Origin: Alphaproteobacteria bacterium
GTDB lineage: Bacteria > Pseudomonadota > Alphaproteobacteria > UBA828
Length of the DNA stretch: 64,000 nucleotides
Direction: 5' to 3'
Assembly (NCBI GenBank): GCA_965221125.1
Contig: CBDCRW010000004.1
Location: 576,001 to 640,000, forward strand
In this document: positions 3,212-57,200 of the stretch, one piece after another
Numbering within the stretch: the first letter of the stretch is position 1
Layout of the letters: the number at the start of each line of letters is the position of its first letter
Notes under the pieces: model-generated
Seen by the model: the letters and a program-made list of their open reading frames with translations, nothing else
Told to the model about the DNA's origin: nothing
The model's database searches: none
Position numbers and translations under genes: made by a program

Positions 3212-3538
3212 ATGCACAAGGTGGAGGACAGGCAGGTTCCGGCCCGCGCCGCGGCGTCCGCGCTGTCGTTCGACCCGCGCGCCCGAGGCGGCCGAATTTT
3301 TTCGGCCGGGGGCTTGACAAGGGGCGGTGACGCTCCCGGTATAATCAGCCGGTCAGCCGGTCAGCCGGTCAGCCGGTCAGCCGGTCAGCCGGTCAGCCGG
3401 TCAGCCGGTCAGCCGGTCAGCCGGTCAGCCGGTCAGCCGGTCAGCCGGTCAGCCGGTCAGCCCCACCTGGGTCTGCGCTCCGGCCATGATCGCAGCGGCA
3501 TGGCCGCGCTGCCGGAAGGGGCCACCATCCCGGCCTGA
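3212..3538 (+). CDS. Leader ORF of cassette 1, reading through the tandem repeat; out of frame with the 3486 gene
   Basis: Same GLT.......IIS-repeat-PHL...GHD..MAA...PA* architecture as the leaders at 38923 and 45723. The distance 3212 to 3486 is 274 nt (mod 3 = 1). This start is less well supported than in the other cassettes. Confidence 0.4.
   Translation: MHKVEDRQVPARAAASALSFDPRARGGRIFSAGGLTRGGDAPGIISRSAGQPVSRSAGQPVSRSAGQPVSRSAGQPVSRSAGQPHLGLRSGHDRSGMAALPEGATIPA
3314..3345 (+). promoter_or_regulatory. TTGACA-N20-TATAAT element abutting the tandem repeat
   Basis: TTGACA at 3314-3319 and TATAAT at 3340-3345. The same 20-bp spacing occurs at three other loci. Confidence 0.6.
3346..3462 (+). 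repeat. Simple sequence repeat (CAGCCGGT)x14 plus a partial unit
   Basis: Counted directly: 14 perfect units at 3346-3457, then CAGCC. Confidence 0.98.
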
Positions 3539-6194
3539 CGCCTCCCCCTCCGCCGGCAGGGGAAACGCTCGCCGGCTACCTTCTTCTCCCCGAACAGTCT
3601 TCTCCGGCGCGGGCCGCGCGGCGGCGGCGCTGCTGCTGTTGGCGCTGCCCTGCGCGCCGGGCCTGGCCGCCGACGGCCCTGAGGCCGCCCGGGAAACCGC
3701 CTACCCCGAAGGCGCGGTCGCCCGCGTCTTGAGCCTGCCGGCCGATACACATTCGGGCACGCCTTCGGACGCCTGGCGTCTGTCGGGACCGGACGCGGCC
3801 CGGTTCCGGGTCGAGGCGGGGGCGCTCCGCTTCGCCGCCCCGCCGGATTTCGAGAAGCCGGAGGATGCGGACGGCGACAACCGCTACGCGGTGACGCTGC
3901 GGCGCGCCGGTGCGGACGGCACGACGATTGCCGTCACCGTTCGGGTGCAGGACCGCGACGAGCCCGGCCGGGCCGTGTTGCGGCCCTGGCGCCCCGTCGT
4001 CGGCGAGCCGGTGACGGTGAGCCTGACCGACCCTGACCGCGCCGACACCGCCCCGGCTCCGACGGTGCAATGGGAACGCTGGCGGGCTCCCGGAGAGTGG
4101 CAGGCGATCCCGCGGGCGACCGGGCTGCACTACACCCCGGCGGCCGCGGACGCGGGCCGTCCGCTCCGCGCGGTGGTCTCATATGCCGACCGCCACGGGC
4201 CGGACCGGCAGGCGGTGGCCGAGCTGCCCAACCCCGTCGTCGGCCCGATGCTGTCCGCGCTCACGGCCCGCACCGACAGCGCCCGCTCGCGCCCGGCCTC
4301 CGAAGACCCCGCCCCGCGCCCGGCCTTCGATCCCCGCATCCTGCATTACGGGGTGCGGTGCGACGAGCGCGACGTGATGACGGTCTCGTTCTCTGCCCCT
4401 CCGGGCGTCCGGGTCTCGGTCAATGGCATCCAGCCCCGGCCGGGACAGGAGGGCTCGGCGGCGGTCCCGGTCACGCCGACAAGCGACGTGGCGGTGACGG
4501 TCGCGGCACCGGACGGGGCCTGGACGACCTACACGCTCCACTGCATGCTGGCCAAACTGTGGACGATCCGCACCGGGCCCGATCCCGCCCGGCCGCTGGG
4601 GGCGCTGCTCGCACTGACCGGGGGTCCCTGGGCGGCGGTCCTCGACGGGCACGGCGTCTCGCGCGCCCATGTCCGGGCCGAGGGCGGCGGGGCGGGCTTC
4701 TTCCTGCGTCCCTTCGGCTCCGGTCCCGATCTCCGCTGGGCGCATTTCGAGCAGATGCCGGAAGCGGAGCGGAAGACGCCAGGCGAGCCACTGCTCCGCT
4801 GGCGGGTGCTCGACCGGGACCTCACGCCGTTGCGCACCGTCGCCACGGCTCTGCCGCTGACCACGACGGGGCGGCACGACTTCCGGCTGCTGGCGGACGG
4901 CTCGACGCTGCTGATGACCTACGAGCCTTCGGTGCGGGACCTGCGGGGGCTGGGGTTCCCGGACCGCGACGGCAAGCCGTACGGCGCAGGCGTCGAGATG
5001 CAGGATTCTGCGATCCAGCTGCGGGGCCCGGACGGCCGGGTGCGCTGGACCTGGAACTCCTGGGGCCGGCTGCCGCTGGAGGACTGCGCCCAGCACCGGT
5101 TCCCCGGCGACTGGGCCCATGTCAACTCCGTCGAATGGACGGAACAAGGCGTGCTGGCGTCCTTCCGGGGCTGCTCGACGGTGGTCATGATCGACCCCGC
5201 CGCGCCGCCCGGCGAGGAGATCGTCTGGCGGATCGGCGCGAGCAACCTTTCTCGCGACGACTGGCAACGCCGCGGCCTCGGGCCGCCGCCGCTCCGCATC
5301 GTCGGCGACCCCGAGGGTGAGTTCTGCGGCCAGCATGCGGCGCAATTGCTGCCTCCCCCTCCGGGCCTGCGCCTGCCGCGCCTGCTGCTGTTCGACAACG
5401 GCGTGGCCTGCGTCATCGATCCCTGGACCGGCGAACCGCTCGGGCGGACCTCCGGCATCTACAGCCGGGCGGTGGAATACGCGCTCGACCTCGAACACGG
5501 CGAGGCGGTCTTCGTGCGCGACCACGCGCTCGGGGGCGCGCGCGACATGCTCGGCCATGCCGGCGGGCATGTCGAACCCCTGCCGGACGGCGGCTGGCTG
5601 GTGAGCTGGGGCGGCCTCGGCCGCGCGTCGCCGGACCGGGTCGGCGGAAAGCGGCCCTCGGACCTGGTGACGCGGGTCGATCCCGCAACCGGCATGGAGA
5701 GTTTCCGGATTGTGGAGGCAGAAAGTGACGGAGCCCACCTGCGTCCCCTGCCGGTGAGCCCGCTCGCGACGATGCGCGCGCCGGGCCGGCTCGCCGCCGT
5801 GCTGCCCGACGTGCCGCCGGCGGGGCATGGCGGCGCGGGAGAGACTGTCGAGGTCGCGGTGGCCTTCTCGCGCCCGGTGGCGGCGTTCGGGCCCGAGACC
5901 GGCTCCGTCGCGGTCGCCGGCGGCGCGCTGGCGGAGGCCGCACCGCTCGACGGCTTCGGCCGCCCGGCTCATGCCTGGCGGCTGGTGCTGGCGCCCTCGG
6001 GCGACGGGCCGATGGAGCTGCGGTTCCGGGCCGGCGTCGCCTGCGCGGGGTCGGCGCCCGGCATCTGCACGGCGGACGGAGAGCGCCTGCGCGGCGTTCC
6101 GGATGCGTTCGCGATCCCACGAAACATCGACGAAGGCGCCGCCCGGGACCGGGCGGCGGACGCGGGACAGGCAACCCGCAGCAGACAGAATTGA
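3486..6194 (+). CDS. Secreted arylsulfotransferase (ASST)-like protein with an N-terminal cadherin-like domain
   Basis: Signal peptide (AAALLLLALPCAPGLA) and cadherin-like motif PDFEKPEDADGDNRYAVT..DRDEPG. ASST-type motifs: HDFRLL, DWAHVNSVE, LASFR, FCGQHAA, LLFDNG, YSRAVEYALD. Confidence 0.75.
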   Translation: MIAAAWPRCRKGPPSRPDASPSAGRGNARRLPSSPRTVFSGAGRAAAALLLLALPCAPGLAADGPEAARETAYPEGAVARVLSLPADTHSGTPSDAWRLSGPDAARFRVEAGALRFAAPPDFEKPEDADGDNRYAVTLRRAGADGTTIAVTVRVQDRDEPGRAVLRPWRPVVGEPVTVSLTDPDRADTAPAPTVQWERWRAPGEWQAIPRATGLHYTPAAADAGRPLRAVVSYADRHGPDRQAVAELPNPVVGPMLSALTARTDSARSRPASEDPAPRPAFDPRILHYGVRCDERDVMTVSFSAPPGVRVSVNGIQPRPGQEGSAAVPVTPTSDVAVTVAAPDGAWTTYTLHCMLAKLWTIRTGPDPARPLGALLALTGGPWAAVLDGHGVSRAHVRAEGGGAGFFLRPFGSGPDLRWAHFEQMPEAERKTPGEPLLRWRVLDRDLTPLRTVATALPLTTTGRHDFRLLADGSTLLMTYEPSVRDLRGLGFPDRDGKPYGAGVEMQDSAIQLRGPDGRVRWTWNSWGRLPLEDCAQHRFPGDWAHVNSVEWTEQGVLASFRGCSTVVMIDPAAPPGEEIVWRIGASNLSRDDWQRRGLGPPPLRIVGDPEGEFCGQHAAQLLPPPPGLRLPRLLLFDNGVACVIDPWTGEPLGRTSGIYSRAVEYALDLEHGEAVFVRDHALGGARDMLGHAGGHVEPLPDGGWLVSWGGLGRASPDRVGGKRPSDLVTRVDPATGMESFRIVEAESDGAHLRPLPVSPLATMRAPGRLAAVLPDVPPAGHGGAGETVEVAVAFSRPVAAFGPETGSVAVAGGALAEAAPLDGFGRPAHAWRLVLAPSGDGPMELRFRAGVACAGSAPGICTADGERLRGVPDAFAIPRNIDEGAARDRAADAGQATRSRQN

Positions 6195-6207: not shown

Positions 6208-9200
6208 ATGATGACCGATGGTAACCGGAACGCAGGAACGCCCGTATCGCACGCCGCCGCGGATGGTCAGCGGCATTGCTCCCTTGGCGGCCGGAAATGG
6301 TTCCGGTCGTGGCTTGCCCCACTGGCCGGCGCCCGATCCGGTCTGCGAGCCCTGCTGCCGGTCTTGTTCGCATTCCTGCTGCTGGCCGGATGGACGTCCG
6401 GGGCCGGGGCAGTGACGCTCACCGCAAATCCCAGCTTTGTCTGCCAGGGCCAGACGGTGGACATAACCGTTTCCGGTCTGTCCGCCGGTGCATCGGATGT
6501 CTTTTATCTCGCTGGATCCAGCGGGACCGCGACTTCAGGAACCCACTACAGGATCCTGAACTCGGACGGCACTGAAATCAGTGACTACCAGGACGTAGCG
6601 GTCACCGCGGACGAAAACGGCAGATTTACCCTGCGGGTTCAAAACATCAGTGCAGATGGGAGCGCGGATTTTGAATCAGCCAACTACAATGACTTTGAAA
6701 TCATTTTTCATCCCTCCACACATGCCGACTGCGCCACCACCTCCGACGGCGTCACGGTCTCCCCGACTTCCCTTGCCCTGACCGAGCTCGGCTCGTCCAG
6801 CACCATCGAGAAGACCTACACGGTGGTCCTCGACACCGACCCGGGCGTCGACGTCACGATCACGGCGACCAACGGCGACGCCACCGCGGTCGAGGTGGAC
6901 ACCGACGCGGGCACGTCCGGCAACCAGAACACCCTGACCTTCACCCACGGCAACAGCGGCAACTGGAACACGGCGCAGACGGTGACGGTGCGGGCGCTGA
7001 ACGACCTCGACAGTGCGAACGAGTCCTTCAGCATCACGCACGCGGCGACCGCGGCGAGCGGCCCCTACAACGGCATCACCGTCGCCCCGGTGGCGGTGAC
7101 GACGGCCGACGCCGGCCACGGGGTGGTGGTGTCGAAGTCGAGCCTGTCGGTGGCGGCGAACGACGAGACGGACACCTACACGGTGGTTCTGAAGAGCGCA
7201 CCCGGCGGCACGGTGACGATTACGCCGACCTCGGGCGCGACGACGCGGGCGACGGTCTCGCCGGCCTCGCTCAGCTTCACCAACTCGGACTGGAACACGC
7301 CGAAGACCTTCACGGTGACCGGCAAGGGCCAGGGCTCGACCTCGATCAGCCATGCGGTGAGCACGGGCACGACGGCCTATCCGACGTCCCTGACGATTCC
7401 CGCCGTGTCGGTCACGGTGACGGCGGATTCGCGGCAGGTGCTGGACCTTTCGTTCAGTTCGAACAGCAATAACGAGGGTGTCTCCGCCATCCTGACCGTC
7501 ACCGCCACCGGCGGCTCCGGCAACGTGACGGTTACGGGCGGCACGGCGCTGCTGACCTTTTCGGGCGACGGCATCGCGTCTTCGGACTATTCAGTCACTA
7601 CGGCCTCCATCCTCGTCCTGTTTGGAGGCCCGCCCCCCTCCGCCCCTGTCGGCATCGACCTCGCCAGCGACAGCGTCGACGAGCCGAACGAGACGCTGGT
7701 TGTCGGCCTGCAGAACCTGCCGGCCGGCTACCGGGCCGGCACGACCGCCTCGGTCACGATCATCGACCGGAACCCCACCACGGTGACGCTGGCGGGCGGC
7801 GGCACGGTGACGGAGGACGGCGCGAACTCCGCGGACGTCACGGTGACGCTGAGCCGCAACCTGGTGGCCGGGGAGACGGTGACCGTGCCGCTGGCGATCA
7901 CGGGCGCCGGCATCGCGGCGGGCGACTACACGATCGCGCCGGCGCCGGGATCGAGCCTCAACAGGGGCGTGACGCTGAACACCTCGAACCCGCACAGCGC
8001 GGCGCAGCCGGCGGTGGTGTTCACGGGCCACGGCACGAACACGGTGCAGGTGGCGACGCTCCGGGTGACGGCGGTGCAGGACTCCACGGACGAGGGTGCG
8101 TCGGAGGCGCTCGCCGTGGGCTTCGGCAGCGGCAACCGGGCGGTCATGAGCAATCTCGACCGGGCGTCGGGCACCGGCACGACCGGCACCACGACGGCGG
8201 GCACGGCGACGGTGACGATCACCGACGACGACACGTCGGCGGTTCCGGAGGTCTCGATGGAGCTTCAGACCGGGGAGACCTCGAATCGCAACACCGCCGG
8301 GCAGCTGGAGCTTGTCGAGAGCGGGGGCGTGGACGGGGCGGTGTTCAACCTCAGCGCCGACAGCGTGCTGGTCTCGACCCTGACGGTGTGCCTGCGCCTG
8401 ACCGAGACCGGCGGCGACCTTGTGGCCGCGGCCGCGGAGGGCATCAGGACGGCCACGCTGACCAGCAGCGGCAACACCAACGGCGCCGGCATTTACACGC
8501 TCACCTGGGCGGGCGACACGGATGACGAGCGGAACAGCGTGGTGACGGCGACGCTGTTGGCGCCGGAGACGGCGGGCTGTTCGGCCGCGAACGGGACCTA
8601 CACGGTGGCGTCGGCGATGGCGTCGGACGCGGTGTTCATCGAGGACGACGACGCCACGACGGTCGAGCTCACGAGTTCCGACACGAGCATGGCGGAGGGC
8701 GACGCCTCGCAGACGGCGACGCTGACGTTCACGCTCGGGCGCCGGCTCCATGCGGGCGAGGTCCTGGTCGTGCCGTTCACGCTGGCGACGACGACGGGCG
8801 CGAGATTGCCCGGCCATTCGACGCCGGACTTCGCGGTGACGGCGGCGGGCACGGGGGTGACGATCGCGAGGCCCAACACGGCGACCCCGTCGGTGACCTT
8901 CACCGGCCACGGCACCGACACGGTGCGGACCGCGACGGTGACGCTGACGCCGGTGGCGAACCGGGACGACGGCGACACGGCGCGCGAGGAGATCGCGGCG
9001 ACGCTGGCGACCGACAGCGTGCTGGGTTCGACCGCGGGCACCGACACGACGGTCGGCGGCGGCGCCATGCGCCACGCGACGAACTTCGCGGTCGACCTGA
9101 CGCTGGAGGACGACGACGCGCCGGCCGGCGCCACCGAGCTGACGCTCACCCTGTCCTCGGCCTCGGCCCCGGAGGGGAGCGGCGGCACGCGCGACGTCAC

Positions 9201-12200
9201 CGTGACGGTCGCCAAGCCGGCGGGGTCGGCGCGGGTCAGCTACCGGCTGTGCTTCTCCGGCACCGCGACCCTGGACGAGGACGGCGAGCGGGCGCCGGGG
9301 GAGGACTACCGGGTCATCAAGTTCAACGGCGGTCAACAGACGGTGTTCCACGGCGGTCACATGGCGCTGTTCCACACGACGGGGGGCGCGCGCTGCGTCG
9401 GCGGCGGTTCCGTCACCTTCCTTGCGGGCGTGGACAGCCACGCCTGGCGGGTCCGGGTGTTCGGCGACGCCGTCAAGGAGAACGACGAGACGGTGGTGGT
9501 GACGCTCTCCGAGAGCGGGACCCCGCTGCCGGACGGCTGGTCGATATCCTCCGCGGGCAACCCCGCGACCCACACGATCGCCAACGACGACGCGCCGCAC
9601 GTCACGCTGCACGCCGTGGACCCGGTCGCGGTGGAGGGCAGCAGCACCGACACCGCCGCCATCGAGGTGCGCCTGAGCCACGCGCTCGAGGCCGGCGAGA
9701 CCCTGACGGTCAATCTGGACACGAACACCTTTATCTGGGGGAACTCCAGCCTGGACGGATCGCCGGCGGGCGTCGCCTACTCCAGACCGTCGGGCAGAGA
9801 GCACCGGCTGGTGTTCACCGGGCCGAGCGCCCCCGACCGGGCCCGGATCGTCCTTGAAGCGAGCGCGAACAGCGTGAGCGGCGACGGCCTCCAGAGCCGC
9901 GACCACTATGCGGAACTGACCAGCGTGACGGGTTACTCCGGCGCCACCCTGGACAGCCGGCAGGCGAGCCGGCAGTTCCTGCAGGTCATCGACAGCGCGT
10001 CCGCCGCGGGCCACGGCGTGACCCTGTCGGTGCATTCGTGGCCCGACGGCTCGATACGCGAGATCGGGGAGGGCGGCAAGGCGGTGCTCAAGGTCTCCGC
10101 CGCCGGCGGCAGGCCGGTATCGGTGACCGTCGCCGTGCAGCCGGTCACCGCGGACTTCGCCGACCTCGGCCGCGCGAGCGCGGGCGGCCACGGCCCCGGC
10201 GGCCCGGCGAACGCGACGGGCTGGGTCGCCTACAAGGAACGCGACGGGCACCAGGGCCTCGACCTCTACACGGTGAGCATCTTCGAGCAGCCCGCGCCCT
10301 CCGTGTACATGCAGATCCCCATCGTCGACGACGGCCAGGCCGAAGGGCCGGAGACCTTCCGTGCGTTCATCTACCGGACGCCGCCCGGCTACAAGGCGGG
10401 CGGCGGCCTCGCGGGCACGCGGGTGTCGACCGTCGAGTTCACCATCCCGGCAAGCGACGGCGGCCTGCCCCGGAACGCGGCCGCGGTCGAGGTCCCCGAC
10501 ACGCAGGTGGCGAACCTGAAGGTGACGAGGGTCGATGCGAGCACCGCCTCGGCGCGCTGGGACGCGGTCGCGCACGCCACCGGCTACGAGGTGGAGTGGG
10601 ACGCGCTCGACGGCAACGGGCGGTCGATCGCCGCCGGCCTCCACGCCGGCGTGACCGCCACGACGCAGACGATCGAACACCAGGCGCCGGGGGCGGCGTC
10701 GCTCAGGGTGACGGTGGCGCCGGAACATGTCGACGGCAACGGCGACACGCAGGTGCTGTCCGGCCTCGCGGCCACGGCGGTGCTCGACCTGTCGACGCCG
10801 CAGTCCGCGCAGGCGGATTCGATCCAGGCGGGCGCGGCGTCCTGCGACCTGGCGTCGGTGAAGGCGGACGTGAACCGCTATATCGGGGAGACGCAGTACG
10901 GCACGGCGCATGTGGCGCGCTGGAAGAAGGCGCTGGCCGGTCTGAACCGCGAGACCGGCGGCATGACCGCGGCCGGGGCGCGGCAGATGAAGGCGAAGTA
11001 TTCGCCGGGCCGCTGGCAGCCGGTGGTGGACGGCCTCGACTGCCTGGAGAAGGCCGCAACGCCGCAGGCGGAGACGCCGGCGGCGGTCCCCGAACTGAGC
11101 CTCGCGGCCGGTCCCGCCGTGGACGAGGGCGGCAACGCGGCGTTCACCGTCCATGCCGACCCGGCGCCGGCGGCGGAGCTGACCGTGGCCTTCACCGTCG
11201 CCCAGAGCGGCGAGTATCTGGACGCGCCCGGCGCGGGCAGCCGTCAGGTGACCCTGGCGGCGGGCGCCGCGAGCGCCACGCTCGCCATCGCCACGGCGGA
11301 CGACGGCGTGGACGAGCCCGACGGCTCGGTCGGCGTCACCCTCGATGCCGGCGCGGGCTACACCCTGGCGGCCGGCAAGGCGGGCGGCACGGTCGCGGTG
11401 CGCGACAACGACACGCCGGCGGTCAGCATCGCCGCCGGGAGCGGGGTGACGGAGGGAGCCCCGGCCGCGTTCACCCTCACGGCGAACCCGGCGCCGCATG
11501 CCGACCTGACGGTGACGCTGGCGGTGACCCAGAGCGGGGACTTCGCGGCTTCCGGCCAGACCGGCGCGCGGGAGGTCACGATCCCGACCGGGGGCAGCGC
11601 GTCCTTCGAGGTCGCGACGGTGAACGACAGCGCGGACGAGCCGGACGGCTCGGTCACGGCAACCGTCGCCGCCGGAACCGGCTACGCGGTGGCGGCCTCG
11701 CCGGACGACACGGCCTCGGTGGCGGTGGCGGACGACGACGCGGCGCCGGGGGCGCCCGCACTCGCCATCGGCGATGTGAGGGCCAATGAGGGCGACGGGT
11801 TCATGTGGTTCACGGTCACGCTGAGCCCGGCCTCGGACCGTCCGGTATCGGTCGATTACCATACCCGGGAGTCGAACCCGGTGTCGGCGCGCAAGGACAG
11901 CGACTTTCTCCAGGTCGATTTCGGGGGGGTCACGTTCAGTCCGGGCGAGACGAGCAAGCGGTTCTGGGTCTACCTGTTCGACGACAACCACGACGAGGAT
12001 CCGGAGACCTTCGAGGTCGCGCTGTCGCGCCCGACGGGTGGGGCGGTCATCGCCGACGGGGTGGCGGTGGGCACCATCGTCAACGACGACCCGATGCCGG
12101 CGGCGTGGCTGGCGCGCTTCGGGCGCACGGTGGCCGAGCAGGCGCTCGACGGCATCGCAAACCGCATCGCGGCGCCGCGCGAGGCCGGCGCCCGGGGCAC

Positions 12201-16489: not shown

Positions 16490-16491
16490 GA

Positions 16492-18575: not shown

Positions 18576-18576
18576 G

Positions 18577-23934: not shown

Positions 23935-23937
23935 GCC

Positions 23938-25340: not shown

Positions 25341-25381
25341 ACCCGATGAAACGAAACAATCATCAAGACACTGACAAGGCC

Positions 25382-32894: not shown

Positions 32895-33076
32895 GGCCTC
32901 CGATCATACCGTCCGGGCGGGAAAAGGGAATCCTCCGGCCCCGTCGTCTTCGCCCCGCCCACCGCCGGCCTTTGCCTCCGGGCGGCGCCGTGCCGGGCGT
33001 GCGGCGCCGAAGGCAGGTGCGACGTTCGCCTGTCCGTCTTCGCGCCTGCGGGCGTCGCCCATGAAGGAACGGGACC

Positions 33077-35221: not shown

Positions 35222-35222
35222 C

Positions 35223-38846: not shown

Positions 38847-38922
38847 TCGCTTGGAATGGGTCGTGCGCTCTCCTTCGGAGAGTCCGCATCGGGTGTTTTT
38901 TGCAGTCCGGAGGGGGGCGACC

Positions 38923-45947: not shown

Positions 45948-48900
45948 CCGTTCTGCCGCCAGCCGCGCCGAGCCGCGCCGCATGCGCTCGCCGGGGCGCC
46001 GCCTGCAAGGTGCCCTTTGTTCGTCGGTGCTGTTGCTGCTGACGGCGATTGCCTCCGGCGAGGCCTGGGCGGCACCCTATATCAGTATCGCCGCCTCTCC
46101 CGCCTCGGTGGAGGAAGGCGAGACGATCACGTTCACGATAACCAGAACCGGGTCCACGTCGTCGGCCCTGGAGCAGATCGTGATCCACCTCCCCCAATTT
46201 GGCAGTCCTTTTGTCTGCGACGGCAGCCGGTGCCCGGTCAAGTACGTCCGACCGCTGGATGTCGGCTACGAGTGCGCCATCCTCCCCGGCGTGAGCAATC
46301 ATCGCTGCTTTACCATTCCTGCCGGCAAGAGTTCGATCACCGTCGACGTGCCGACCTACGCCCACACGCTGCATGAGGAGGATGGGCGGGTCGGCTTCTT
46401 CATACGGGGTGGATATCCCGAGTATACCGGGATGAACCATTACTGGATAAAGGGACCCAGCCGCCGCTACGTGACGGTGCGCGACGGGCCGGACGTGACG
46501 CCGGACGTCAAGGCGACGCTGAGCATTCCGGACAACCGCGCGACCGAGGGGGATGCCAGCGATCCGGCAACGGTGGCATTGACGTTGACCGGGTCAGATC
46601 CCACTGCCCTTGTTTCGCCGACAGTGCCTTCAAGCCGGGAATTGATCCGGGGCGAGAGCCTCAAGGTGCCGCTTCAGTTCTCGGGCGGTACGCCCGGAAC
46701 GGACTTCACGCTGTCCCTGTCGGGCAACCCCGCCGGGGTCTCGCTCGATGCGAGCACCGGCACCGTCACCTTCACCGGCCCGTCCAGCGGCAGCAGCGCG
46801 GCCGCCGCGACGCTGATCCTTACTGCCGCGGACGATCCGGATGCGGACGGCGCCACCGTGACCGCGAGTATTGGGCATGTGACCGCCTCGGGCATCCCCG
46901 GGAGCGCCAGCGGCGCACGGAACGGCGACGGACGGATTCTCCTGATCGATCCCGACACCCCGCCGCCGCCGCAAATCAGCATTTCTGGAGGAGCCGATGT
47001 CACCGAAGGCAGCGCGGCCATCTTCACGCTGAACGCCGACCCCGCGCCATCGGATGACATCAGCGTCGAAGTGGAGGTGTCGGACAGCGGCGACTTCGCC
47101 ACCGGCGGACAGGACGGCTCCCGGACGGTCACGATCGGCGCAAGCGGCAGCGCCAGTCTCGAGGTCGCCACCGCGAACGATGGCCGGGACGAGCCCGACG
47201 GCGCGATTACCGCGACGATCGGGAGCGGCGACGGCTACACGGTGGACAGCCGGAGCCACACGGCTTCGGTCGCGGTGGCGGACGATGACGTGCCGGTGGT
47301 GGCCTTTGCCTCGGCCTCGTCGGGCGCGGGGGAAGCCGCGGGCACGCGCAACGTGACGCTCGATCTCGATCCGGCGCCGGGCGCCGGCATCACGCTCGAC
47401 TACAGCGTCGGCGGCACGGCGACCGAGGGCAGCGGCAACGACTTCACCATCGAGAGCTCCGGCACCGTGTCGGTCGCGGCCGGCGCCGCGACGGCGACCA
47501 TCCCGATCGCGATCGTCGACGACGCCAGCAATGAGAGCGCCGAGACCGTGGTGCTGACGCTGACCGACGGCACGGGCTACACGCCGGGCGCCACGAAGGC
47601 CCACACCCTCACCATTACCGACGACGACGCGGCTGTCGTCCCGCCCGGCGTGACGGTCTCGACCGACGCGCTCAGCCTTGCCGAGGGCGGCGCGGCGGGC
47701 AGCTACACGGTGGTGCTGGCGAGCAAGCCGACGGCGGATGTGACGGTGACGGCAACGAGCGGCGATGCGGGCAAGGTGAAGGTCCACGGCCCCGGCGGCA
47801 CGGCGGGCGCGAGCGCCACGCTCACCTTCACCTCGACGACCTGGAACCGGGCGCAGAGCGTGACGGTGACGCCACAGGAGGATGCGGACGCCGACGACGA
47901 GAGCGTCGCCATTACCCATGCCGTCAGCAATACCGGCGGCTATGGCGGGGTGACGGTCGGGTCCGTCACGGTCTCGGTGGACGATGACGAGACGCCGACG
48001 CTTTCGGTCGCGGTCGCGCCGGCGTCCGCGAACGAGGGCGCGGCGGGTGCTAAGGGTTACGCGACGGTGACCTTCGGCCTTGCCCCGACGCGGGCACAGG
48101 CGACGAGCTTCAAGGTGTGCCTGAAGAGCACCGGCACCGCGACCCGGGGCGGCAGCGCGGACTACCTGTTCGTCGGGCCGTCGAGCGACACACCCGTGAG
48201 CCTTTCCAACGACTGCCACAGCTACACGCTGCCCGCGAACGCGGCGAGCGGGCAGGCGCGGCTGCTGATCCGGGGCGACGGCGAGGTCGAGCCCGACGAG
48301 ACGGTGGTGGTGGAACTGCGCGACCCGCCGCAGGGGGTGGCGGTCTCCGGGGCCGCGGGCCTTGCGACCTACACCATCGTCAACGATGACACCGCCCCCA
48401 ATGCCTGCCATGCGGATGTGAAGCCGGACGTGCAGGGCTATGCCGGGGAGACGCACTACGGAACGGCGCACGTGACGCGCTGGATGAAGGTGCTGGCCGC
48501 CTTCGGCGACGACAACGGCCATGCGGCGATGGACGTCGCCGAGGCGAAGCAGATGCGGGACCAGTACTCGCCGGGCCGCTGGAACCCGGTGATAACGGCG
48601 CTCCAGTGCCTGGAGAATGCCGGCACGACCAATACCGGTCCCGAGATCACGGTCACGGGCGGCAGTGGCGTTACCGAGGGCGGCAATGCGGTGTTCACGG
48701 TTGCGGCCGATCCGGCCCCGGCTTTGAGCCTGGCGGTGACGCTCACCGTCGTCGACGACGCGGTGAGCGATTTCCTCGGCGCAGGCGATGAGGGGACGCA
48801 GACGGTCACCATCCAGGCGGGCCAGTCCTCGGCCACGCTCACGCTCGCCACGGTGAATGACAATGCGGACGAGCCCAATGGCAATGTGTCCGCGACAGTC

Positions 48901-51594
48901 GAGGCCGGCGCCGGCTACACGGTCGGCAGCCCGAACGCGGCGACGGTGGCGGTGAGCGACGATGACGATCCGCCGGTCGCGACACCGGTGGTGCGCATCG
49001 CCGGCGGCAGCGGCATCGCCGAGGGCGGCACCGCCAGCTTCACCCTGACCGCCACGCCCGCGCCTGCGGGCGCGATCACGGTCCGGGTGGACGTGACCGA
49101 CAGCGGCAGTTTCGCCGCAGGCGGCCAGACCGGCGCGAGGACGGTGACCGTGGGCACGTCCGGCACGGCAACGCTCGCCGTGGCTACGGCGGACGACGGC
49201 GCGGACGAGGCGAATGGCAGCATCGCGGCCGCGCTCCAGGCTGGCACGGGCTACGCGGTGGCAGCACCGCCCGGAGATACCGCCTCGGTCGCGGTCGCGG
49301 ACAATGACGATCCGGTGGTGAGCATCGCCGCCGGCGCCGGGGTGACGGAAGGAGCCCCGGCCGCGTTCACCCTCACGGCCACGCCTGCGCCGCACGCGGA
49401 CCTGACGGTGAGCCTCGCGGTGACCCAGAGCGGGGACTATGCCGCCCAAGGCCATACCGGCACGAGGAACATCATCATCCCGGCCGGGGGCAGCGCGGCC
49501 TTCGAGGTCGCGACGGTGAACGATACGGCGGACGAGCCCGACGGCTCGGTCACCGCGACCCTTGCCGCCGGCACCGGCTACGCGGTGGCGGCGTCTCCGG
49601 ACGACGCGGCCTCGGTCGCGGTGGCGGACGACGACGTGGCGGCGGCGGGCGTGCCGAGCCTCTCGGTGAACGACGTCGAGGTAAAGGAGGGTCCCTACCG
49701 GCGGGTCGAGTTCACGGTGACGCTCAGCAAGGCGTTGGAGAAGGGCGCCTGGTTCTACTACCGGGTGCGGGAGTCGAGCCCGGTGTCGGCGAAGCGGGGC
49801 GTGGACTTTTCGGCCTCTACCGGAAAGAAGTTTGCGTCCATGAGGCCGGGCGCGACCGAGCACCGGATCATGGCGGCCCTGGTGATCGACGACAGCCACG
49901 ACGAGGACCCGGAGACCTTCGAGATCGTGCTCTCGGACGCGAACGGCGCGGCGATCGCGGATGCCGTGGGCGTGGCGACGATCGTGAACGACGATCCGAT
50001 GCCGGCGGCGTGGCTGGCGCGCTTCGGGCGTACGGTTGCGGAGCAGGCGCTCGACGGCATCGCGGGCCGCATCGCGGCGCCGCGCGAGGCGGGCGCCCGG
50101 GGCACGCTTGCAGGGCAGGCGCTGAGCTTCGGAACGGGCTCGGCGGCTGACGGCGCGGCGAACGATGCCGGATCGTTGTCCGGGGCAGGCAACGCGGCCA
50201 TTGCCGACGCGGGCATCGAAGGCGCCGGGCCGCTGGCGCTGTCCGGCCTCGACGCTCCCGCCGGCCGCTTGGGCACGGTTGGTTTCGGCCATGACGCGGA
50301 CGGCTTCGGCCAGGGATTGGCGCAATCCCGCACCATGACGGGGCTGGAGGCGCTGCTGGGATCGAGCTTCACCGCGACGGGAGAGACCGACGCCACCGGC
50401 GGCAGTCTCGCCTTCTGGGGCCGGGCGGCGCAGTCGAGCTTCGACGGAAGAGAGGGCGCGTTCTCGCTCGACGGCGAGACGACCACCGCCATGCTGGGCG
50501 CGGACTACGCGCGGGGCAGGTGGCTGGTCGGGCTGGCGCTGATGAAGAGTTCCGGCGAGGGCGGCTATGCCGATGCCGGAACGGGGTCCGTGCGCTGTCC
50601 GCAGGACCTGGACGCGGAGACGCGGGAGGTCTTGTGCGCAGGCGCGGTGCGGGAGGGCGACGGCGACGTCGAGGCGTCGCTGACGGCTGCCGTCCCCTAC
50701 GCGGCCATCCAGGCGTCGGAACGGCTCCGGTTCTGGGGCGCGGCGGGCTACGGCACGGGCGAGGTGACGCTGAAGCCGGACGTGGGCGGCTCTCTCAAGT
50801 CGGACATCTCCTGGACGATGGCGGCGGCCGGCGCGCGGAGCGAGCTGCTGCCTCCGCCCAGGGAAGGCTCGGGTCCCACGCTGGCGCTGACGTCGGACGC
50901 GCTGTGGGCGCGGACCTCGTCGGAGAAGACGCACGAGCTTGCGGCGTCGGATTCCGACGTGACGCGGCTCAGGCTCGGTCTGGAGGGCGGCTACGCCATC
51001 GCCACCGAGGGCGGCGGCAGCGTGACGCCCAGGGTGGAAATAGGCGCGCGCCACGACGGCGGCGACGCGGAGACCGGCTTCGGGGTCGAGCTCGGCGGCG
51101 GCATCGCCTGGACCGATCCGGCGATCGGGCTCTCGCTCGACCTGTCGGGCCGGACGCTGATCGCGCACGGCAACGACGACCTGGAGGACCAAGGCTTCGC
51201 GGCCTCGCTGGCCTTCGATCCCGATCCGTCGAGCGAGCGCGGGCTGTCGCTGACGCTGCGCCAGGACTGGGGCGGATCGGCCGAGGGCGGTCTCGACGCG
51301 CTGTTCGCGACCGACCCGCTGGCCGACCGTGCCGGTATCGGCGAGGCGACCAGCCGCTGGCAGGCGGAAGCGGCGTATGGCCTCCCGGCCTTCGGCAACC
51401 GCTTCACCGGGAGCCCGCATGTCGGGCTGGGGCTTGCCACGGGGACGCGCGACTACACGCTCGGCTGGCGGCTCTCGCCTGCGGCCAACGCCAACGCGCC
51501 CGATCTCTCCTTCGGCGTGAAGGCGACAAGGCGGGAGAGCGACACGGCGGCACCGGAGCACACGGTCGGGTTCGAGGCTGTAGCGCGCTGGTGA
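45904..51594 (+). CDS. Calx-beta repeat autotransporter-like surface protein (adhesin 3, 1896 aa)
   Basis: Signal peptide ending EAWA and multiple Calx-beta repeats. The conserved barrel ends in VARW. Confidence 0.87.
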   Translation: MRALAWLCRTSSPPDRSAASRAEPRRMRSPGRRLQGALCSSVLLLLTAIASGEAWAAPYISIAASPASVEEGETITFTITRTGSTSSALEQIVIHLPQFGSPFVCDGSRCPVKYVRPLDVGYECAILPGVSNHRCFTIPAGKSSITVDVPTYAHTLHEEDGRVGFFIRGGYPEYTGMNHYWIKGPSRRYVTVRDGPDVTPDVKATLSIPDNRATEGDASDPATVALTLTGSDPTALVSPTVPSSRELIRGESLKVPLQFSGGTPGTDFTLSLSGNPAGVSLDASTGTVTFTGPSSGSSAAAATLILTAADDPDADGATVTASIGHVTASGIPGSASGARNGDGRILLIDPDTPPPPQISISGGADVTEGSAAIFTLNADPAPSDDISVEVEVSDSGDFATGGQDGSRTVTIGASGSASLEVATANDGRDEPDGAITATIGSGDGYTVDSRSHTASVAVADDDVPVVAFASASSGAGEAAGTRNVTLDLDPAPGAGITLDYSVGGTATEGSGNDFTIESSGTVSVAAGAATATIPIAIVDDASNESAETVVLTLTDGTGYTPGATKAHTLTITDDDAAVVPPGVTVSTDALSLAEGGAAGSYTVVLASKPTADVTVTATSGDAGKVKVHGPGGTAGASATLTFTSTTWNRAQSVTVTPQEDADADDESVAITHAVSNTGGYGGVTVGSVTVSVDDDETPTLSVAVAPASANEGAAGAKGYATVTFGLAPTRAQATSFKVCLKSTGTATRGGSADYLFVGPSSDTPVSLSNDCHSYTLPANAASGQARLLIRGDGEVEPDETVVVELRDPPQGVAVSGAAGLATYTIVNDDTAPNACHADVKPDVQGYAGETHYGTAHVTRWMKVLAAFGDDNGHAAMDVAEAKQMRDQYSPGRWNPVITALQCLENAGTTNTGPEITVTGGSGVTEGGNAVFTVAADPAPALSLAVTLTVVDDAVSDFLGAGDEGTQTVTIQAGQSSATLTLATVNDNADEPNGNVSATVEAGAGYTVGSPNAATVAVSDDDDPPVATPVVRIAGGSGIAEGGTASFTLTATPAPAGAITVRVDVTDSGSFAAGGQTGARTVTVGTSGTATLAVATADDGADEANGSIAAALQAGTGYAVAAPPGDTASVAVADNDDPVVSIAAGAGVTEGAPAAFTLTATPAPHADLTVSLAVTQSGDYAAQGHTGTRNIIIPAGGSAAFEVATVNDTADEPDGSVTATLAAGTGYAVAASPDDAASVAVADDDVAAAGVPSLSVNDVEVKEGPYRRVEFTVTLSKALEKGAWFYYRVRESSPVSAKRGVDFSASTGKKFASMRPGATEHRIMAALVIDDSHDEDPETFEIVLSDANGAAIADAVGVATIVNDDPMPAAWLARFGRTVAEQALDGIAGRIAAPREAGARGTLAGQALSFGTGSAADGAANDAGSLSGAGNAAIADAGIEGAGPLALSGLDAPAGRLGTVGFGHDADGFGQGLAQSRTMTGLEALLGSSFTATGETDATGGSLAFWGRAAQSSFDGREGAFSLDGETTTAMLGADYARGRWLVGLALMKSSGEGGYADAGTGSVRCPQDLDAETREVLCAGAVREGDGDVEASLTAAVPYAAIQASERLRFWGAAGYGTGEVTLKPDVGGSLKSDISWTMAAAGARSELLPPPREGSGPTLALTSDALWARTSSEKTHELAASDSDVTRLRLGLEGGYAIATEGGGSVTPRVEIGARHDGGDAETGFGVELGGGIAWTDPAIGLSLDLSGRTLIAHGNDDLEDQGFAASLAFDPDPSSERGLSLTLRQDWGGSAEGGLDALFATDPLADRAGIGEATSRWQAEAAYGLPAFGNRFTGSPHVGLGLATGTRDYTLGWRLSPAANANAPDLSFGVKATRRESDTAAPEHTVGFEAVARW

Positions 51595-52284: not shown

Positions 52285-52411
52285 GCGAAGCGCGCGCCCG
52301 CCCGGACCGGTACCGGGACAGCGATCCCCAGACCTCCATGGACCGCATCCTCTGCGCGGTCTTCGCCTGAGAAAACACATCCCGGGCAATCACCGCCCCC
52401 GTGCCCCTGAC

Positions 52412-53864
52412 GATCGTGTCCCGAGGAGTGGTGTAAGAGCGTCGCGCTTTACGCGGCATCCGGCGGGTAGGGCCGGGTTATTCAGGCTGCCACAGCGGAC
52501 AGCTTGATCGTGGGATTGTCGCTCAGGGGAGCGATCGATTCCAGCGTCATGTACCTCCTTCCGACGGTCCATTCGTCGTTCTGCTCGAGCAGCACGGCGC
52601 CGACGAGGCGGGTGATGGCGTCCTCGTTGGGGAAGATGCCGACGACGTTGGTGCGTCGCTTGATCTCGCCGTTGACGCGTTCGAGCGGGTTGGTCGAGTG
52701 AAGCTTGACCCGGTGCTCCTTGGGGAAGCTCATGTAGGCGAGGACGTCGTGCTGGGCCTCGTCCATGAGGGCCGCCAGCTTGGAGGCCTTGGGCCTGAGC
52801 TGGTCGGCGATCAGGCGCCACTGGGCGGCAGCGGCCTCGGCATCGTCCTGGGCGAAGGCGGTGGCGACGAAGGCGGAGACGACGCGCCGGCCCTGCTTGC
52901 CGGCATGGGCCAGCAGGTTGCGCATGAAGTGGACGCGGCATCTCTGCCAGGTGGCGCCGAGGATCCGGGTGGTGGCGGCCTTCAGGCCCTTGTGGTCGTC
53001 GGAGATCACCAGCTGCACGCCGCGCAGGCCGCGCCTGGTCAGCGAGCGCAGGAACTCGGTCCAGAAGGTCTCGGCCTCGGAGGCGCCGATCGCCATGCCG
53101 AGGATCTCGCGCCGGCCCTGGTCGTTGACCGCGACGGCCACGGTGACCGCGACCGGGACGATGCGCCCGGCCTCGCGCACCTTCACGTAAGTCGCATCCA
53201 GCCAGAGATAGGGCCAGTCGCCTTCGAGCGGGCGGTCGAGGAAGCTGCGGATCTTGTCGTCTATCTCCCCGCAAAGGCGCGAGACCTGGCTCTTCGATAT
53301 CCCGCTCATGCCCATGGCCTGAACCAGTTCGTCGACCGAGCGGGTCGATACCCCCTGGATGTAGGCCTCCTGGATCACCGCCGTGAGCGCCTTCTCCGCC
53401 GTCCGTCGGGGCTCCAGGAAGCCGGGGAAGTAGCTCCCCTTCCTGAGCTTCGGAATCTTCAGGTCGACCGTGCCGGCCCGGGTCTCCCAAGGCCGATCGC
53501 GGTAGCCGTTGCGCTGGTTGATCCGCTCCGGCGTCCGCGCGCCATGCTCGGCGCCGGTCAGGCCCTCGACTTCCAGCTCCATAAGGCGCTGCGCAGAGAA
53601 GGCGATCATCTCACGCAGCAGATCGGCGTCAGAGCTCTTCTCCAACAGCGTCCGCAGGGTAAGCTTGTCATCGGTCATCGTGGTTCTCCTTAGGCTCGGG
53701 TCGATTCGGATTCACCCAAACCCTAAACCGGAACCGCGATGGCCACCCCGCTGTGGATAACCGGCTTGGCGCCACCAGACTCGAGGGCGGTCGCGGCGCC
53801 AAGCCGGTTACCCACAGCTACCGGGGGTAGCGGGAGCTCCTACACCACGTCTGGGGACACAACC
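52412..53864 (-). mobile_element. IS256-family insertion sequence with imperfect 29-bp terminal IRs and an 8-bp TSD (CCCCTGAC)
   Basis: Left end GATCGTGTCCCGAGGAGTGGTGTAAGAGC versus the reverse complement of the right end GGTTGTGTCCCCAGACGTGGTGTAGGAGC. CCCCTGAC occurs at 52404-52411 and 53865-53872. Confidence 0.93.
52482..53678 (-). CDS. IS256-family (Mutator) DDE transposase
   Basis: [48 protein letters not shown] and [16 protein letters not shown]. Confidence 0.97.
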
Positions 53865-54222: not shown

Positions 54223-57200
54223 ATGGGTTTTGTGCGAGAGGCGTGGGCGGCGGTTGCGGCTGCCGCGGGCGAGGTCCGGGATCGGGGCTTGACAAGTTGC
54301 CGTGAGGTTCCCGTTATAATCAGCCGGATCGCCGGATCGCCGGATCGCCGGATCGCCGGATCGCCGGATCGCCGGATCGCCGGATCGCCGGATCGCCGGA
54401 TCGCCGGATCGCCGGATCGCCGGATCGCCCCACCTGCGCGCCTGCCGGTCATGATCGGCTCCGCATGGCGGCGGCTCCTCCGGCCTTCATCCCCGCCTGA
54501 GACATCCGCTCCCGCCGGCCGCGGCCTTCGGCGCGGCCTGCTGCCCGCGCTGCTGTGCCTGCCGCTGCTCGCGGGCCTCGCCGCCCCGGCCGCCGCGCAG
54601 ACCACCCCCTCGATCGCTGTGGCCGTCGCGACCTCGCCGACCGAGGGCAACCCTGCTGAATTCGCGCTGAGTGCAACAAGTTCGGGGTCGTGGTCGTCGT
54701 CGCTGACAGTGACCGTGAACGTCGCCCAGACCGGCAATTATGTCGCCGCGAACCATCTGGGCAACAGGGACATCACGATTCCGGCGGGCCAGTTTTACGC
54801 ATCGACGACGTTCTCCATCCCGACGATCGGGGACAATACGGATCAGGCGGAGGGCTCGATCACCGTGACGGTGCAGTCCGGCACCGGCTACACGGTGACT
54901 GGCGGAACGGCCACCGCAAGTGTCGTGGACGACGATCCGGTCGAGGTCTCGCTGACCGGCGGCGGCCGGATCAGGGACGGCAACACGGGCGATTCCGTCA
55001 ACATCGAGATTTCGGTCCCGCGCCCCGTCGACGGCGAACTCATCAGTGTTCCGCTGGTCATGACTTCAGGCACCGGCGCGCAACTGCCCGGGTCGACGAG
55101 CCCGGATTTCAGCTATGCGGTGACGGGAGGAACGGTCACCGCTCAAGCCGGCACGGCCACGCCGGTCCTGCGGTTCGGCACCGGCAGCAGTCGCATGACG
55201 TTGACGCTGACTCCCACGGCGGGCGAGGACAGCGACAGCGCCGATGAAACGATCACCGTCGGCTTTGGGACGTTCACCCAGAGCGTCCAGGGCGTCGGTG
55301 GCGGCGCGAAGGCGCATCCCGCGAACAACAGCGCCACGGTCAGGATCTCCGAGCCCCGGACGATATCGTTCACGGGTGTCGCCACATCGGTGTCCGGGCC
55401 GCTTGATCCCGCCTCGACGGACGGGACCCACTCGGTGAGCGAGAGCGTCGGCGCCTTATGGGTGGAGCTCGCATTGAGCCAGGCCCCGGAGTACACGACC
55501 ACCGTTTATGTCCGGGAGAAGAAGTCCGGCACGACGGCCACGCACCGCCAGGACTACAAACGCAGCGGCACAGGGTTCGGCTGGATCGCGAATTTCGGCG
55601 GCGGCAGTCGCAAGGCGCGGTTCCGGGTCCCGATCGTCGCCGACGGGATCGCCGACGACAAGGAGACGCTGACGCTCGAGATCTACAACGTCAGCAGCAT
55701 CGAACCCAATTTCAGCCTGGGCCACACGATCGACGCGGCCGGAACCTACACGCTCACGATCCGGGACTACACGGCGACCAATGCCAGCGACTATGTCGAC
55801 GTGTGGCTGTCGAAGGACGAATACGAAGTGACCGAGGGCGAGGCGCTCGAGGCGACCGTCCACCTGCAGCATCCGCGGGATGCGGACACCACGATCAACC
55901 TGACCGAGACGCGCGGCACGGCCACGGACGGCACGGACTACACCGCCGGCCCGTACTCCGTCACGGTCCCGGCGGGCAGGACGAGCGCGACCTTCACGGT
56001 CCAGACCACGCAGGACGAGGAGCAGGAACTGGGTGATGAGACATTCCGGGTGCGGATCGACGATTCCAGCCTGCCGGCAGGGTTCGCGACGTCGGACGGG
56101 ACCGGCAGGCCGGAAGAGGCCGTGGTCGAGATCGTCGACGACGAATACACCTTCTGTTTCGGGGCAAACAGCTATTTGGCTCCGGAGGGCGAGGAAGGGG
56201 TCCTGCCGCTCACGTTCTCGCGGCCGTTGCCGCAGGCAGGCTCGTTCCGGTTCCGCTACTTGAACCTGAACGCCAGCGACAGCGACTACACGCGAGTGTT
56301 CGACTTCCCGGTCTTTTTCGATCTCCCCGCGGGGACGGAGGAGTACACGCTCAGGCTCCCAGTCGCCGCGGACCTGCTGTACGAGGACAACGAGCTTCTC
56401 AAGATCACGTCCATTACGCCGACCATTCCGAATGGAATACTCGAATGCTCAACCGACATCATCATCAAGGACCGGAGCCGCGAGGTGGATTTCCAGGCCG
56501 CGGCCTACACGGCCCATGAGGGCCGGGAGGCGGAGGTGGGGATCCGGGTGGTCGAACGGGGAACCGACGATCTCATGACGCTCCGCAAGCCGGTCACGCT
56601 GCACATCGCCGCCACGGGCACGGGCAGCGCCACGGCGGGCACGGACTACGCGGCGGGCCCGTGGACTCTCACCATCCCGGCGGGGGCCTCCAGGGGCGTC
56701 CTGCGGATTCCGGTCCATGCGGACGGGGCCAATGACGACGGGGAGACCATCGATCTGGAGATCAAGCGGGCGACCGGGGGCTCCGGCGTGGCTCCCGGGC
56801 GACAGCTTGGCGACCAGAACGGCAACGTGCTGTCCGCAAACCTCCACGTCCGGGTCAGGGATACCACTGATATGCCCAACGGCGCCGCGACGGTGACGAT
56901 CCAGGGCGCGTCGGGGGCGCCGTCGGGCACGCGGTTGGTATGGATCGAGGCCGGCCCGCAGGTGTCCGAGGGCAGTGACGCCACCTTCACGCTGAAGGCC
57001 GACCCGGCGCCGCTTGCGCCGCTGGATGTCAGCATCCATGTCGGGGATACCGGGACGTCCCAGACACGGCATCTGGCCGAGGAGCACCGGGGCCTGCGGA
57101 CGGCGACCGTCGACACCACGGGGAGCACCGTCTTCACCGTGCCGACGCAGACGAACGGATCGCAGCACACCAGCGCGATCCGGGTGGCGCTGATGGACCC

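Follow-up and report, generated by a model that had tools for sequence, protein, structure and literature searches.

A candidate portable phase-variation module with octanucleotide arrays ahead of giant surface proteins in an alphaproteobacterium

Introduction

Repeat-driven phase variation is a textbook feature of a handful of host-restricted pathogens. In Haemophilus influenzae, lic1 carries CAAT repeats together with several start codons and Lav is a phase-variable autotransporter, both with tetranucleotide units; to our knowledge, neither a portable module, nor embedded promoter-like hexamers, nor conserved wrong-frame stops are known for these loci. The opa genes of Neisseria are described as having CTCTT coding repeats in the leader-peptide region (PMC3960869). 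In the account given for hmw1A and hmw2A of H. influenzae, the repeats are 7 bp long and lie in the 5' untranslated region (UTR), where they are not translated and their RNA forms a long hairpin cut by RNase III; the same source reports for hmw1 that deletion of the adjacent promoter abolished the changes in repeat number (PMC12721329). Here, a stretch of 64,000 nt from the genome of an Alphaproteobacteria bacterium (assembly GCA_965221125.1, contig CBDCRW010000004.1, positions 576,001 to 640,000; referred to in full as the window) is analyzed, in which four cassettes, numbered 1 to 4, each begin with a leader open reading frame (ORF) that enters a perfect array of 8-bp repeats upstream of a gene for a predicted exported protein. 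From the comparison of these switch modules with copies found elsewhere, it is probable that they represent a portable translational phase-variation module, in which the copy number of the array sets the reading frame of the cargo.

Anatomy of the switch module

The anatomy was derived from an alignment of the four window modules (Table 1) with 12 further copies from elsewhere, and the order of its parts is constant. A G-rich Shine-Dalgarno (SD) sequence and an ATG open a poorly conserved leader of 66-102 nt, which is followed by TTGACA, exactly 20 variable bases, TATAAT (TAAAAT in cassette 3), two bases and the array; behind the array come GCC(C/T)NNCCTG, CATGA in most copies and then an invariant G(C/T)CTGA, which overlaps the conserved S-P-P-(D/E) of the gene frame. 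The clear leader SD that the original prediction had claimed for cassettes 2-4 is present as GGAGG or a G-run located 7-10 nt upstream of the ATG, and cassette 1 has GGGGG only. The distances from the leader ATG to the post-array ATG, 274, 262, 181 and 228 nt in cassettes 1 to 4 (that is 1, 1, 1 and 0 modulo 3), proved exact, and one further unit would put cassettes 1-3 in frame, while cassette 4 is already in frame.

The four perfect 8-bp arrays that had been proposed were all recovered in place by Tandem Repeats Finder (TRF), each with period 8, 100% matches and no indels. The pattern (GCCGGNNN)x3 has 41 matches in the window, all on the + strand (mean of 0.01 in 100 shuffles), and, on reading the sequence, the three units hold no + strand stop codon in any frame, as the same prediction had it. 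In the 4.58-Mb genome the four longest perfect tandem arrays are made of these 8-mers, and the cassette 3 array (40 nt) equals two 10-mer arrays in length. A fifth module of the same genome, 560 kb away and outside the window (G000:C4:17520), has GCCGGTCA x29, perfect and of period 8; it heads a duplicate of cassette 1 and has no transfer genes nearby.

The arrays are 100% pure throughout, though their copy number varies among orthologues and paralogues and their units vary among families; in one orthologue pair a single-base change is present in every unit (GCCGGGAC x5 against GCCGGGAA x8). Purity combined with family-specific units is the signature that rapid expansion and contraction would be expected to leave. 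At locus L072 (G414:C161, 3-95) the array is compound, with seven 8-mers (GCCGGGTC) followed by about four 7-mers (GCCGGTC), and the proteins P0146 and P0168 contain a run of GSPGRRVA repeats and then GSPDRRIA repeats, that is two different 8-mers in tandem. The 10-mer arrays present elsewhere in the genome (G000:C4:376250-376336, C6:524221-524265 and C6:145246-145294; GGCACAAAGT and its near reverse complement, AAGCCGAGAT) were considered as kin of the modules and rejected, being imperfect, intergenic and iteron-like.

A further setting was found in a distant genome, of another family (L069; G414:C87, 1464-1819), where a GCCGGATC array stands behind TTGACA-N17-GAAAAT, with canonical spacing, and a leader ORF of 30 codons starts 8 nt before the -35 hexamer. 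The downstream gene is independent and has its own start; it encodes a precursor of the NHLP class of ribosomally synthesized and post-translationally modified peptides (RiPPs; TIGR03793, 61.2 bits against a cutoff of 50.9). One leader frame stops right after the array, one ends in a TAA 1 nt before the ATG of the gene and one reads across this ATG. Since the same array is found here behind a hexamer pair, the unit of hexamers plus array appears to be the conserved core.

On this anatomy the following mechanism can be proposed. The SD and an ATG resembling the ordinary start of the family open the short, weakly constrained leader, which crosses the two promoter-like hexamers into a perfect (GCCGGNNN)n, stop-free in all frames and encoding, in any phase, the same octapeptide repeat rich in Pro, Gly and Arg. 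The short linker after the array provides one protected stop for each wrong frame; an Arg-rich pre-signal segment (W-RRL...SPPE), a putative signal peptide and the cargo follow. Whenever strand slippage adds or removes an 8-bp unit, presumably reversibly and at a high rate, the frame read from the leader ATG would change. Fusion of leader and cargo in one of the three frames would allow the protein to be made, and its repeat extension would be cut off together with the signal peptide; in the remaining two the leader ORF would end at the protected stops, and the cargo would be off or reduced to the output of the SD-less post-array ATG.

Translation of the array and frames found in nature

Several independent lines of comparative evidence indicate that the array is translated. 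The most direct is the existence of fused proteins: 13 of the 35 proteins retrieved in the search for longer products are fusions of 495-1994 amino acids (aa), with leader, array, Arg-rich segment, signal peptide and a body of Calx-beta, LapA or leucine-rich repeat type, and seven of these 13 have no Met from the array to the core of the signal peptide (Val or Leu starts being possible at the protein level). At the DNA level, an in-frame ATG, GTG or TTG is missing from the same interval in two modules (L046 and L049); the leader of L046 is in frame with its gene, and L049 differs from cassette 4 by an in-frame deletion of 18 nt that takes out the post-array ATG. Moreover, closely related alleles differ in array length and in frame. 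One cluster at 90% identity combines fused alleles of 4, 8 and 13 octapeptides with an allele called from the post-array ATG, a second contains alleles with 12 and 13 octapeptides, and a third contains fused (P0156, P0182, P0183) and split (P0184, P0186, P0181) versions of one protein. The module is also grafted onto a secreted protein of 204 aa: the usual start of this family is MTRHPTVFTAAALGALLL, with an ordinary signal peptide, but three members carry a leader and 9 or 12 octapeptides leading directly into the hydrophobic core.

A second line comes from the stops behind the array. In all 16 modules with a downstream flank, the +2 frame meets a TGA and the +1 frame one stop or more no further than about 105 nt from the array; the background in the coding sequence of the genome is 10% of 90-nt intervals with a +2-frame stop and 4.6% with both frames closed. 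Wherever the codon overlapped by the protected TGA is one for Pro, it is CCT (4.6% of Pro codons), and the TGA is kept in L066 and L072, where this codon is TCT; the stop itself, beyond the amino acid, is therefore under selection. The leader start motif, (A/G)TGCGATGA, also opens the array-less giant G1 (at 6208), so that the leader ATG looks like the ordinary start of the family. Indels from the post-array ATG onward are multiples of 3 in 7 of 7 cases, and those between array and ATG measure 2, 23, 22 and 21 nt; non-triplet indels before this ATG are expected if the array can compensate for them. Furthermore, the minimum free energy (MFE) of the array RNA is weaker than that of all 200 shuffles (z of +3.79 and +2.63), and such low structure fits a translated stretch. 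A weak hint is given by two RNA-library contigs, one of 166 nt spanning 45621-45785 (hairpin, T-run and leader ATG of cassette 3, upstream of TTGACA) and one at 46006-46718, inside giant G3: they are compatible with leader-containing transcripts, although neither the start nor the strand is shown by them. The reusable frame-switch module envisaged at the outset is supported by the fused proteins, the fused and split alleles, the wrong-frame stops and the common start motif.

A small upstream ORF starting at a second ATG (GCATGGC) was considered as a regulator and rejected, as this ATG is ATC in the family with GCCGGGTC units and absent in L049, with the TGA being kept. It is best read as a by-product of the Ala-Trp pair in the gene frame.

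The frame state of a module was defined as the gene frame minus the leader frame, modulo 3, and was assigned to 14 distinct DNA modules with usable flanks, a count that leaves out L047 (a duplicate of L040) and L050 (truncated). Seven modules are in state 1, three in state 0 (fused) and four in state 2. At the protein level, 48 strictly filtered sequences comprise 14 fused proteins, 20 that end at the GCCTGA-type stop and 14 that end at a short-tail stop, proportions that are biased by the length windows of the searches. All three frames are occupied in nature. In the genome studied here cassette 4 is fused, and the others (cassettes 1 to 3 and the fifth module) share state 1, each being one unit short.

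Weighing of the alternatives

A number of observations weigh against a switch governed strictly by the leader frame. Counts of synonymous and non-synonymous changes by codon position in leader and linker gave no signal in any frame, that is, no purifying selection on the peptide. The modules before arylsulfotransferase (ASST)-type genes are all in state 1, both in the 5 of 5 DNA copies (n = 14, 29, 11, 14 and 11) and in a further 2 of 2 leader ORFs, for which n can be estimated from ORF length as about 14 and about 8, and such uniformity is unpredicted by a simple model with two equivalent OFF frames. Of the 16 modules, 13 contain an in-frame ATG after the array, and the dependence of expression on frame may therefore be less than strict. 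TTGACA and TA(T/A)AAT are invariant and spaced by 20 nt in all 16 matched modules, with a variable spacer sequence, and they use rare codons (TTG, 3.3% of Leu; ACA, 2.3% of Thr; ATA, 1.9% of Ile); should a promoter made of these hexamers fire, its transcripts would begin within the array and so exclude the leader ATG. In three module families a hairpin of terminator shape precedes the leader ATG by 19-24 nt, and no leader promoter was identified. Finally, copy numbers are taken from assemblies and may be wrong by one unit.

The ATG and the ASST bias would both find a place in a three-state switch with two expressing frames, which seems to us possible, if rather doubtful. In such a switch the fused frame would be ON, the frame ending at the stop of ATGA (or at a TAG 2 nt earlier) would also be ON by termination-reinitiation, and OFF would be the sole frame that crosses the SD-less post-array ATG to the conserved GCCTGA. 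The post-array ATG is in fact ATGA, with stop overlapping start, in 13 of 13 DNA copies, and this is constant even though A-initial codons make up only 18.7% in the genome and the second residue is varied (I, R, S, T); it also has no SD of its own. All seven ASST-type modules would be in the single OFF frame, which is sensible if OFF is favored for that cargo, and the TAA that ends one frame of L069 just before an independent gene is in keeping with reinitiation. On the other hand, 3 of the 16 modules have no post-array ATG at all, 7 of the 13 long fusions have no Met there, and at the protein level Gly is the second residue in 3 of the 10 N-termini of this type matched by a regular expression, meaning ATGG and not ATGA. 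As far as the sequences go, a three-state model could fit the bias and the constancy of ATGA together.

The hexamers lend themselves to a different explanation, modeled on hmw, in which TTGACA-N20-TATAAT is the promoter and the array forms the untranslated first transcribed stretch, n tuning expression through the length or structure of the UTR; we consider it unlikely. It would account for the invariance of the hexamers and of their spacing, for an array that begins 2 nt past the -10 hexamer, and for the situation at L069, where an array behind canonically spaced hexamers precedes a gene with its own start; the hairpin just before the leader agrees with it, and for hmw1 the 7-bp 5' UTR repeat is reported to govern expression and promoter deletion to abolish repeat-number changes (PMC12721329). 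However, it leaves unexplained the protected stops in both wrong frames, with the TGA obtained via a rare codon, the genes without a start codon after the array (L046, L049 and seven fused proteins) and the constant n modulo 3 of the seven ASST-type modules. The spacer of 20 nt is beyond the usual sigma-70 range, and a consensus promoter scan, which allowed spacers of 16-18 nt only, found no promoter. No long hairpin forms in the array RNA, whose stability is below that of each of the 200 shuffles, and an hmw-like RNA hairpin is accordingly not supported.

The hexamers nevertheless look like a promoter-like element acting at the DNA level, and they are kept in L046 and L049, though these have no start codon after the array. 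One further idea about them was rejected: N20 is not the normal promoter geometry of this genome, near-consensus pairs being rare at all spacings and five of the seven N20 cases being modules. A promoter of the MerR type, with a spacer of 19-20 bp holding a dyad operator, was also considered; by eye, no shared dyad was seen among 11 distinct spacers. The leader ORF of the ASST-type modules contains a perfect palindrome, A/T-rich at its centre (CGGCCGAATTTTTTCGGCCG; window 3290-3313), which abuts TTGACA on the upstream side and could be an UP-like element or an operator. The hairpins before the leader, which have differing, compensating stem sequences and a T-run in the three families, look like the terminator of the preceding operon; counterparts of the cassette 2 hairpin, with other stem sequences, stand before cassettes 3 and 4. 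Rfam gave no family at gathering score within the window.

That the arrays are neutral hypervariable repeats or assembly artefacts without regulatory role is, in our judgement, very improbable. Short-read contigs often end in arrays (L050, L066, L072), the copy numbers do not come from reads, and the contigs assembled from sequencing runs break at arrays, all of which would suit this explanation. It is contradicted by the recurrence of the same architecture, with conserved flanks, wrong-frame stops and start motif, in many independent assemblies and before different cargo, and by the presence of arrays at the same place in long-contig genomes. The translational frame switch is preferred here for the same lines of evidence that point to translation of the array.

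Proteins served by the module

The giant proteins G1 to G4 share a C-terminal domain of about 430 aa; at E<=0.001 its family, a very large one, counts 6844 representative clusters, and in these the domain invariably closes the protein at the C-terminus. Its AlphaFold model, of moderate quality (mean pLDDT 65.5), is an all-beta meander, for which the best Foldseek match is the beta-domain of BrkA (E 9.7e-6, TM 0.70 on the target), followed by Hbp, EstA, EspP and AIDA-I. The giants are therefore predicted to end in an autotransporter-like beta-barrel, of the kind that serves as translocator in type Va autotransporters, and the surface-protein label of the original prediction holds at the level of fold. 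At the level of sequence, a PDB search with the domain gave no match, and for the last 1023 aa of G2 Pfam (E<=1) reports LapA and Calx-beta only and NCBIfam (E<=0.1) none. The passengers consist of Calx-beta and LapA-like domains, and at the N-terminus a hydrophobic core and an AxA-Q motif can be read from the sequence as a putative signal peptide. Array-less relatives start straight at this peptide, as in P0225 (MRRGLLPALLAL), where cassette 4 reads GLRRGLLPALLCL; among the 150 best representatives of the family, two are called as array fusions and about 10 begin at the post-array-ATG signature. Inside G4, a tandem duplication of 327 bp (57934-58553, 1.9 copies, 83% identity) corresponds to a duplicated passenger domain.

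The other cargo type in the window, the arylsulfotransferase-like product of cassette 1, was borne out by Pfam (Table 1). A frameshift joining its gene to G1 was considered and rejected, since G1 has its own SD and start at 6208.

Distribution and habitat

The hexamer-array pattern that the original prediction had proposed to look for in other genomes does occur, and it is rare at the DNA level: in its strict form it was found in 3 of 61 relatives, in 3 of 44 genomes of the family and in 2 of 401 genomes of a class-wide sample (own genome included). Among species-representative genomes there are eight loci, all titled as metagenome-assembled genomes (MAGs) of Alphaproteobacteria, Rhodospirillales or Defluviicoccus, and the pattern is absent from the metagenome contigs of JGI (0 matches). 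Searches at the protein level with the leader ORF products reach much further, with 120 proteins from many assemblies that carry in-register (I/V)AGSP(D/G)RR repeats and have several unrelated leader N-termini; two of them are labelled as Nitrospira sp. and Rhodobacter sp. MAGs, and, given the nature of MAG binning, spread across phyla is a provisional conclusion. Sequencing runs containing DNA of the window are labelled as sponge or marine metagenomes (16 rows, 5 studies), and pieces free of differences occur in runs X1, X5 and X6; the label "host-adapted" is taken solely from these run labels.

Conjugative backbone and neighboring features

The coordinates of the features of the window are collected in Table 1. 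The module had been placed on a conjugative element, and an F-type transfer system does lie between cassettes 1 and 2 (15.9-38.2 kb); the module is, however, confined neither to this element nor to the four loci. A search of a plasmid collection returned only matches at the level of the Calx-beta domain. Behind each giant stand two ORFs, of about 223 aa and about 130-180 aa, neither with a family match. A family of small ORFs with a core of about 125 aa (38298-38702, 44818-45363, 51610-52284, 61403-61792) has one member before each module of cassettes 2-4 and one after cassette 4, with a weak NikA-like hint (E 0.12); its member at 51610-52284 is a hybrid of the N-terminus of the accessory ORF (52 aa) and the C-terminal part of this family.

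The insertion sequence (IS) between cassettes 3 and 4 is polymorphic, a precise joint without it (52403 to 53865, 8 shared letters) being present in runs X1 and X5, and an identical transposase is encoded at 10 places in the genome, this IS included (tblastn). Just 3' of cassette 4 (61850-62030) there are direct repeats of GCGTGTATCGGT and one inverted copy (GTGTATCGCACCGATACAC), a cluster that resembles iterons or a protein-binding array and might possibly be an origin, a partition site or the end of the element. A gene of the YAcAr/SLOG family borders both the cassette block of the window (62667-63593, - strand) and the fifth cassette (G000:C4:30515-31438); the genome has at least 8 such paralogues, with 66-82% identity.

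Table 1. Features of the window (position 1 is the first letter of the 64,000-nt stretch).
Feature	Position	Strand	Details
Cassette 1 switch module	3212..3538	+	Leader ATG 3212; TTGACA 3314-3319; TATAAT 3340-3345; ATGA 3486; protected wrong-frame TGA 3536-3538; leader out of frame, 274 nt
Array, cassette 1	3345-3462 (TRF, 14.8 copies); GCCGG register 3348-3459	+	GCCGGTCA x14
ASST-like gene	3486..6194	+	902 aa, first cargo of cassette 1; Pfam PF05935, E 3.6e-14
Giant G1	6208..13671	+	Own SD (GGAG), start in motif ATGCGATGATGACC, array-less; Calx-beta and conserved C-terminal domain (predicted barrel)
Accessory ORF after giant	13765..14439	+	224 aa; paralogues 44087-44758, 60502-61173; no family match
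F-type conjugative transfer region	15923..38213	+	Pfam: TraE, TrbI-like, TraV, TraC, TraW (TraW_N), TrbC (TrbC_Ftype), TraN, TraH, TraG (TraG_N), TrwB/TraD-type coupling protein, TrwC relaxase
Terminator-shaped hairpin and T-run	38860..38905	+	21 nt before cassette 2 leader ATG
Cassette 2 switch module	38923..39246	+	Leader ATG 38923 (SD GGAGG); TTGACA 38989-38994; TATAAT 39015-39020; ATGA 39185; protected TGA 39244-39246; out of frame, 262 nt
Array, cassette 2	39023-39161 (TRF, 17.4 copies); GCCGG register 39023-39158	+	GCCGGATC x17
Giant G2	39185..44071	+	1628 aa from post-array ATG; putative signal peptide, Calx-beta and LapA-like passenger, predicted C-terminal autotransporter-like beta-barrel
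Cassette 3 switch module	45723..45947	+	Leader ATG 45723; TTGACA 45804-45809; TAAAAT 45830-45835; ATGA 45904; protected TGA 45945-45947; out of frame, 181 nt
Array, cassette 3	45838-45880 (TRF, 5.4 copies); GCCGG register 45838-45877	+	GCCGGGAC x5
Giant G3	45904..51594	+	1896 aa; Calx-beta, conserved C-terminal domain
IS, Mutator/IS256 type	52404..53864	-	Transposase 52482-53678; between cassettes 3 and 4; outside the switch
Cassette 4, in-frame allele	54223..60486	+	Leader ATG 54223; TTGACA 54289-54294; TATAAT 54315-54320; ATGA 54451; wrong-frame TGA 54498-54500; single ORF through array into giant G4
Array, cassette 4	54323-54429 (TRF, 13.4 copies); GCCGG register 54323-54426	+	GCCGGATC x13

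Comparison with known systems

If the proposed mechanism is right, the switch logic known from pathogens would also operate in high-GC environmental bacteria of sponge and marine metagenomes, where one standard module appears to serve autotransporter-like giants, an ASST-like enzyme, a small secreted protein and an NHLP RiPP precursor, and where the off-frame stops make selection visible in the sequence itself. Surface variation by contingency loci would then be a general strategy of animal-associated symbionts, and the module would be a compact natural part for stochastic gene switching. A bolder version, which we offer as speculation and think improbable as a whole, is that of a phase-variation cassette complete in itself, able to move horizontally and to be joined to the 5' end of any exported-protein gene, in which the hexamers, instead of serving expression of the cargo, drive transcription that keeps the array hypermutable (a mutator promoter), the stops and ATGA give three states, and transfer may cross phyla in sponge microbiomes. 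The idea that transcription into the array keeps it mutable comes from the promoter requirement reported for hmw1, and proteins bearing the module come, by their labels, from MAGs of Rhodospirillales type, of Rhodobacter and of Nitrospira. No description of such a module was found in the literature searched, a search whose coverage did not extend to subscription journals.

Among the described systems, lic1 and Lav resemble the module in that several starts around a coding repeat could give more than two levels of expression and, for Lav, in having an autotransporter as cargo. As in hmw, at least in the account cited here (PMC12721329), a non-triplet repeat lies directly 3' of a promoter-like element and 5' of a large adhesin gene; unlike in hmw, the array RNA is less structured than its shuffles and, on the comparative evidence, appears to be translated. 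The resemblance to Opa as described in PMC3960869 is closer, since there too a non-triplet unit is located in the leader- or signal-coding part of the ORF, its copy number sets the frame, and several paralogous surface-protein loci per genome, each with its own array, give a combinatorial repertoire. Opa-type phase variation is the closest known system, and the 5' UTR repeats of hmw are the closest analogue of a competing explanation.

Compared with that description of Opa, the unit is 8 bp and GC-rich (GCCGGNNN) instead of 5 bp, and in the giants the array lies about 50-70 codons upstream of the signal-peptide core. Furthermore, the leader ORF contains promoter-like hexamers, both wrong frames have conserved stops, the module is transferable, standing before unrelated cargo and on a conjugative element, and the hosts are not human pathogens but MAGs of Alphaproteobacteria type associated with sponges or the sea. 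What is new here is the 8-bp GC-rich unit, the portability of a module found before unrelated cargo and on a conjugative element, the protected wrong-frame stops, the hexamers inside a leader that appears to be translated, and the sponge- and marine-associated setting.

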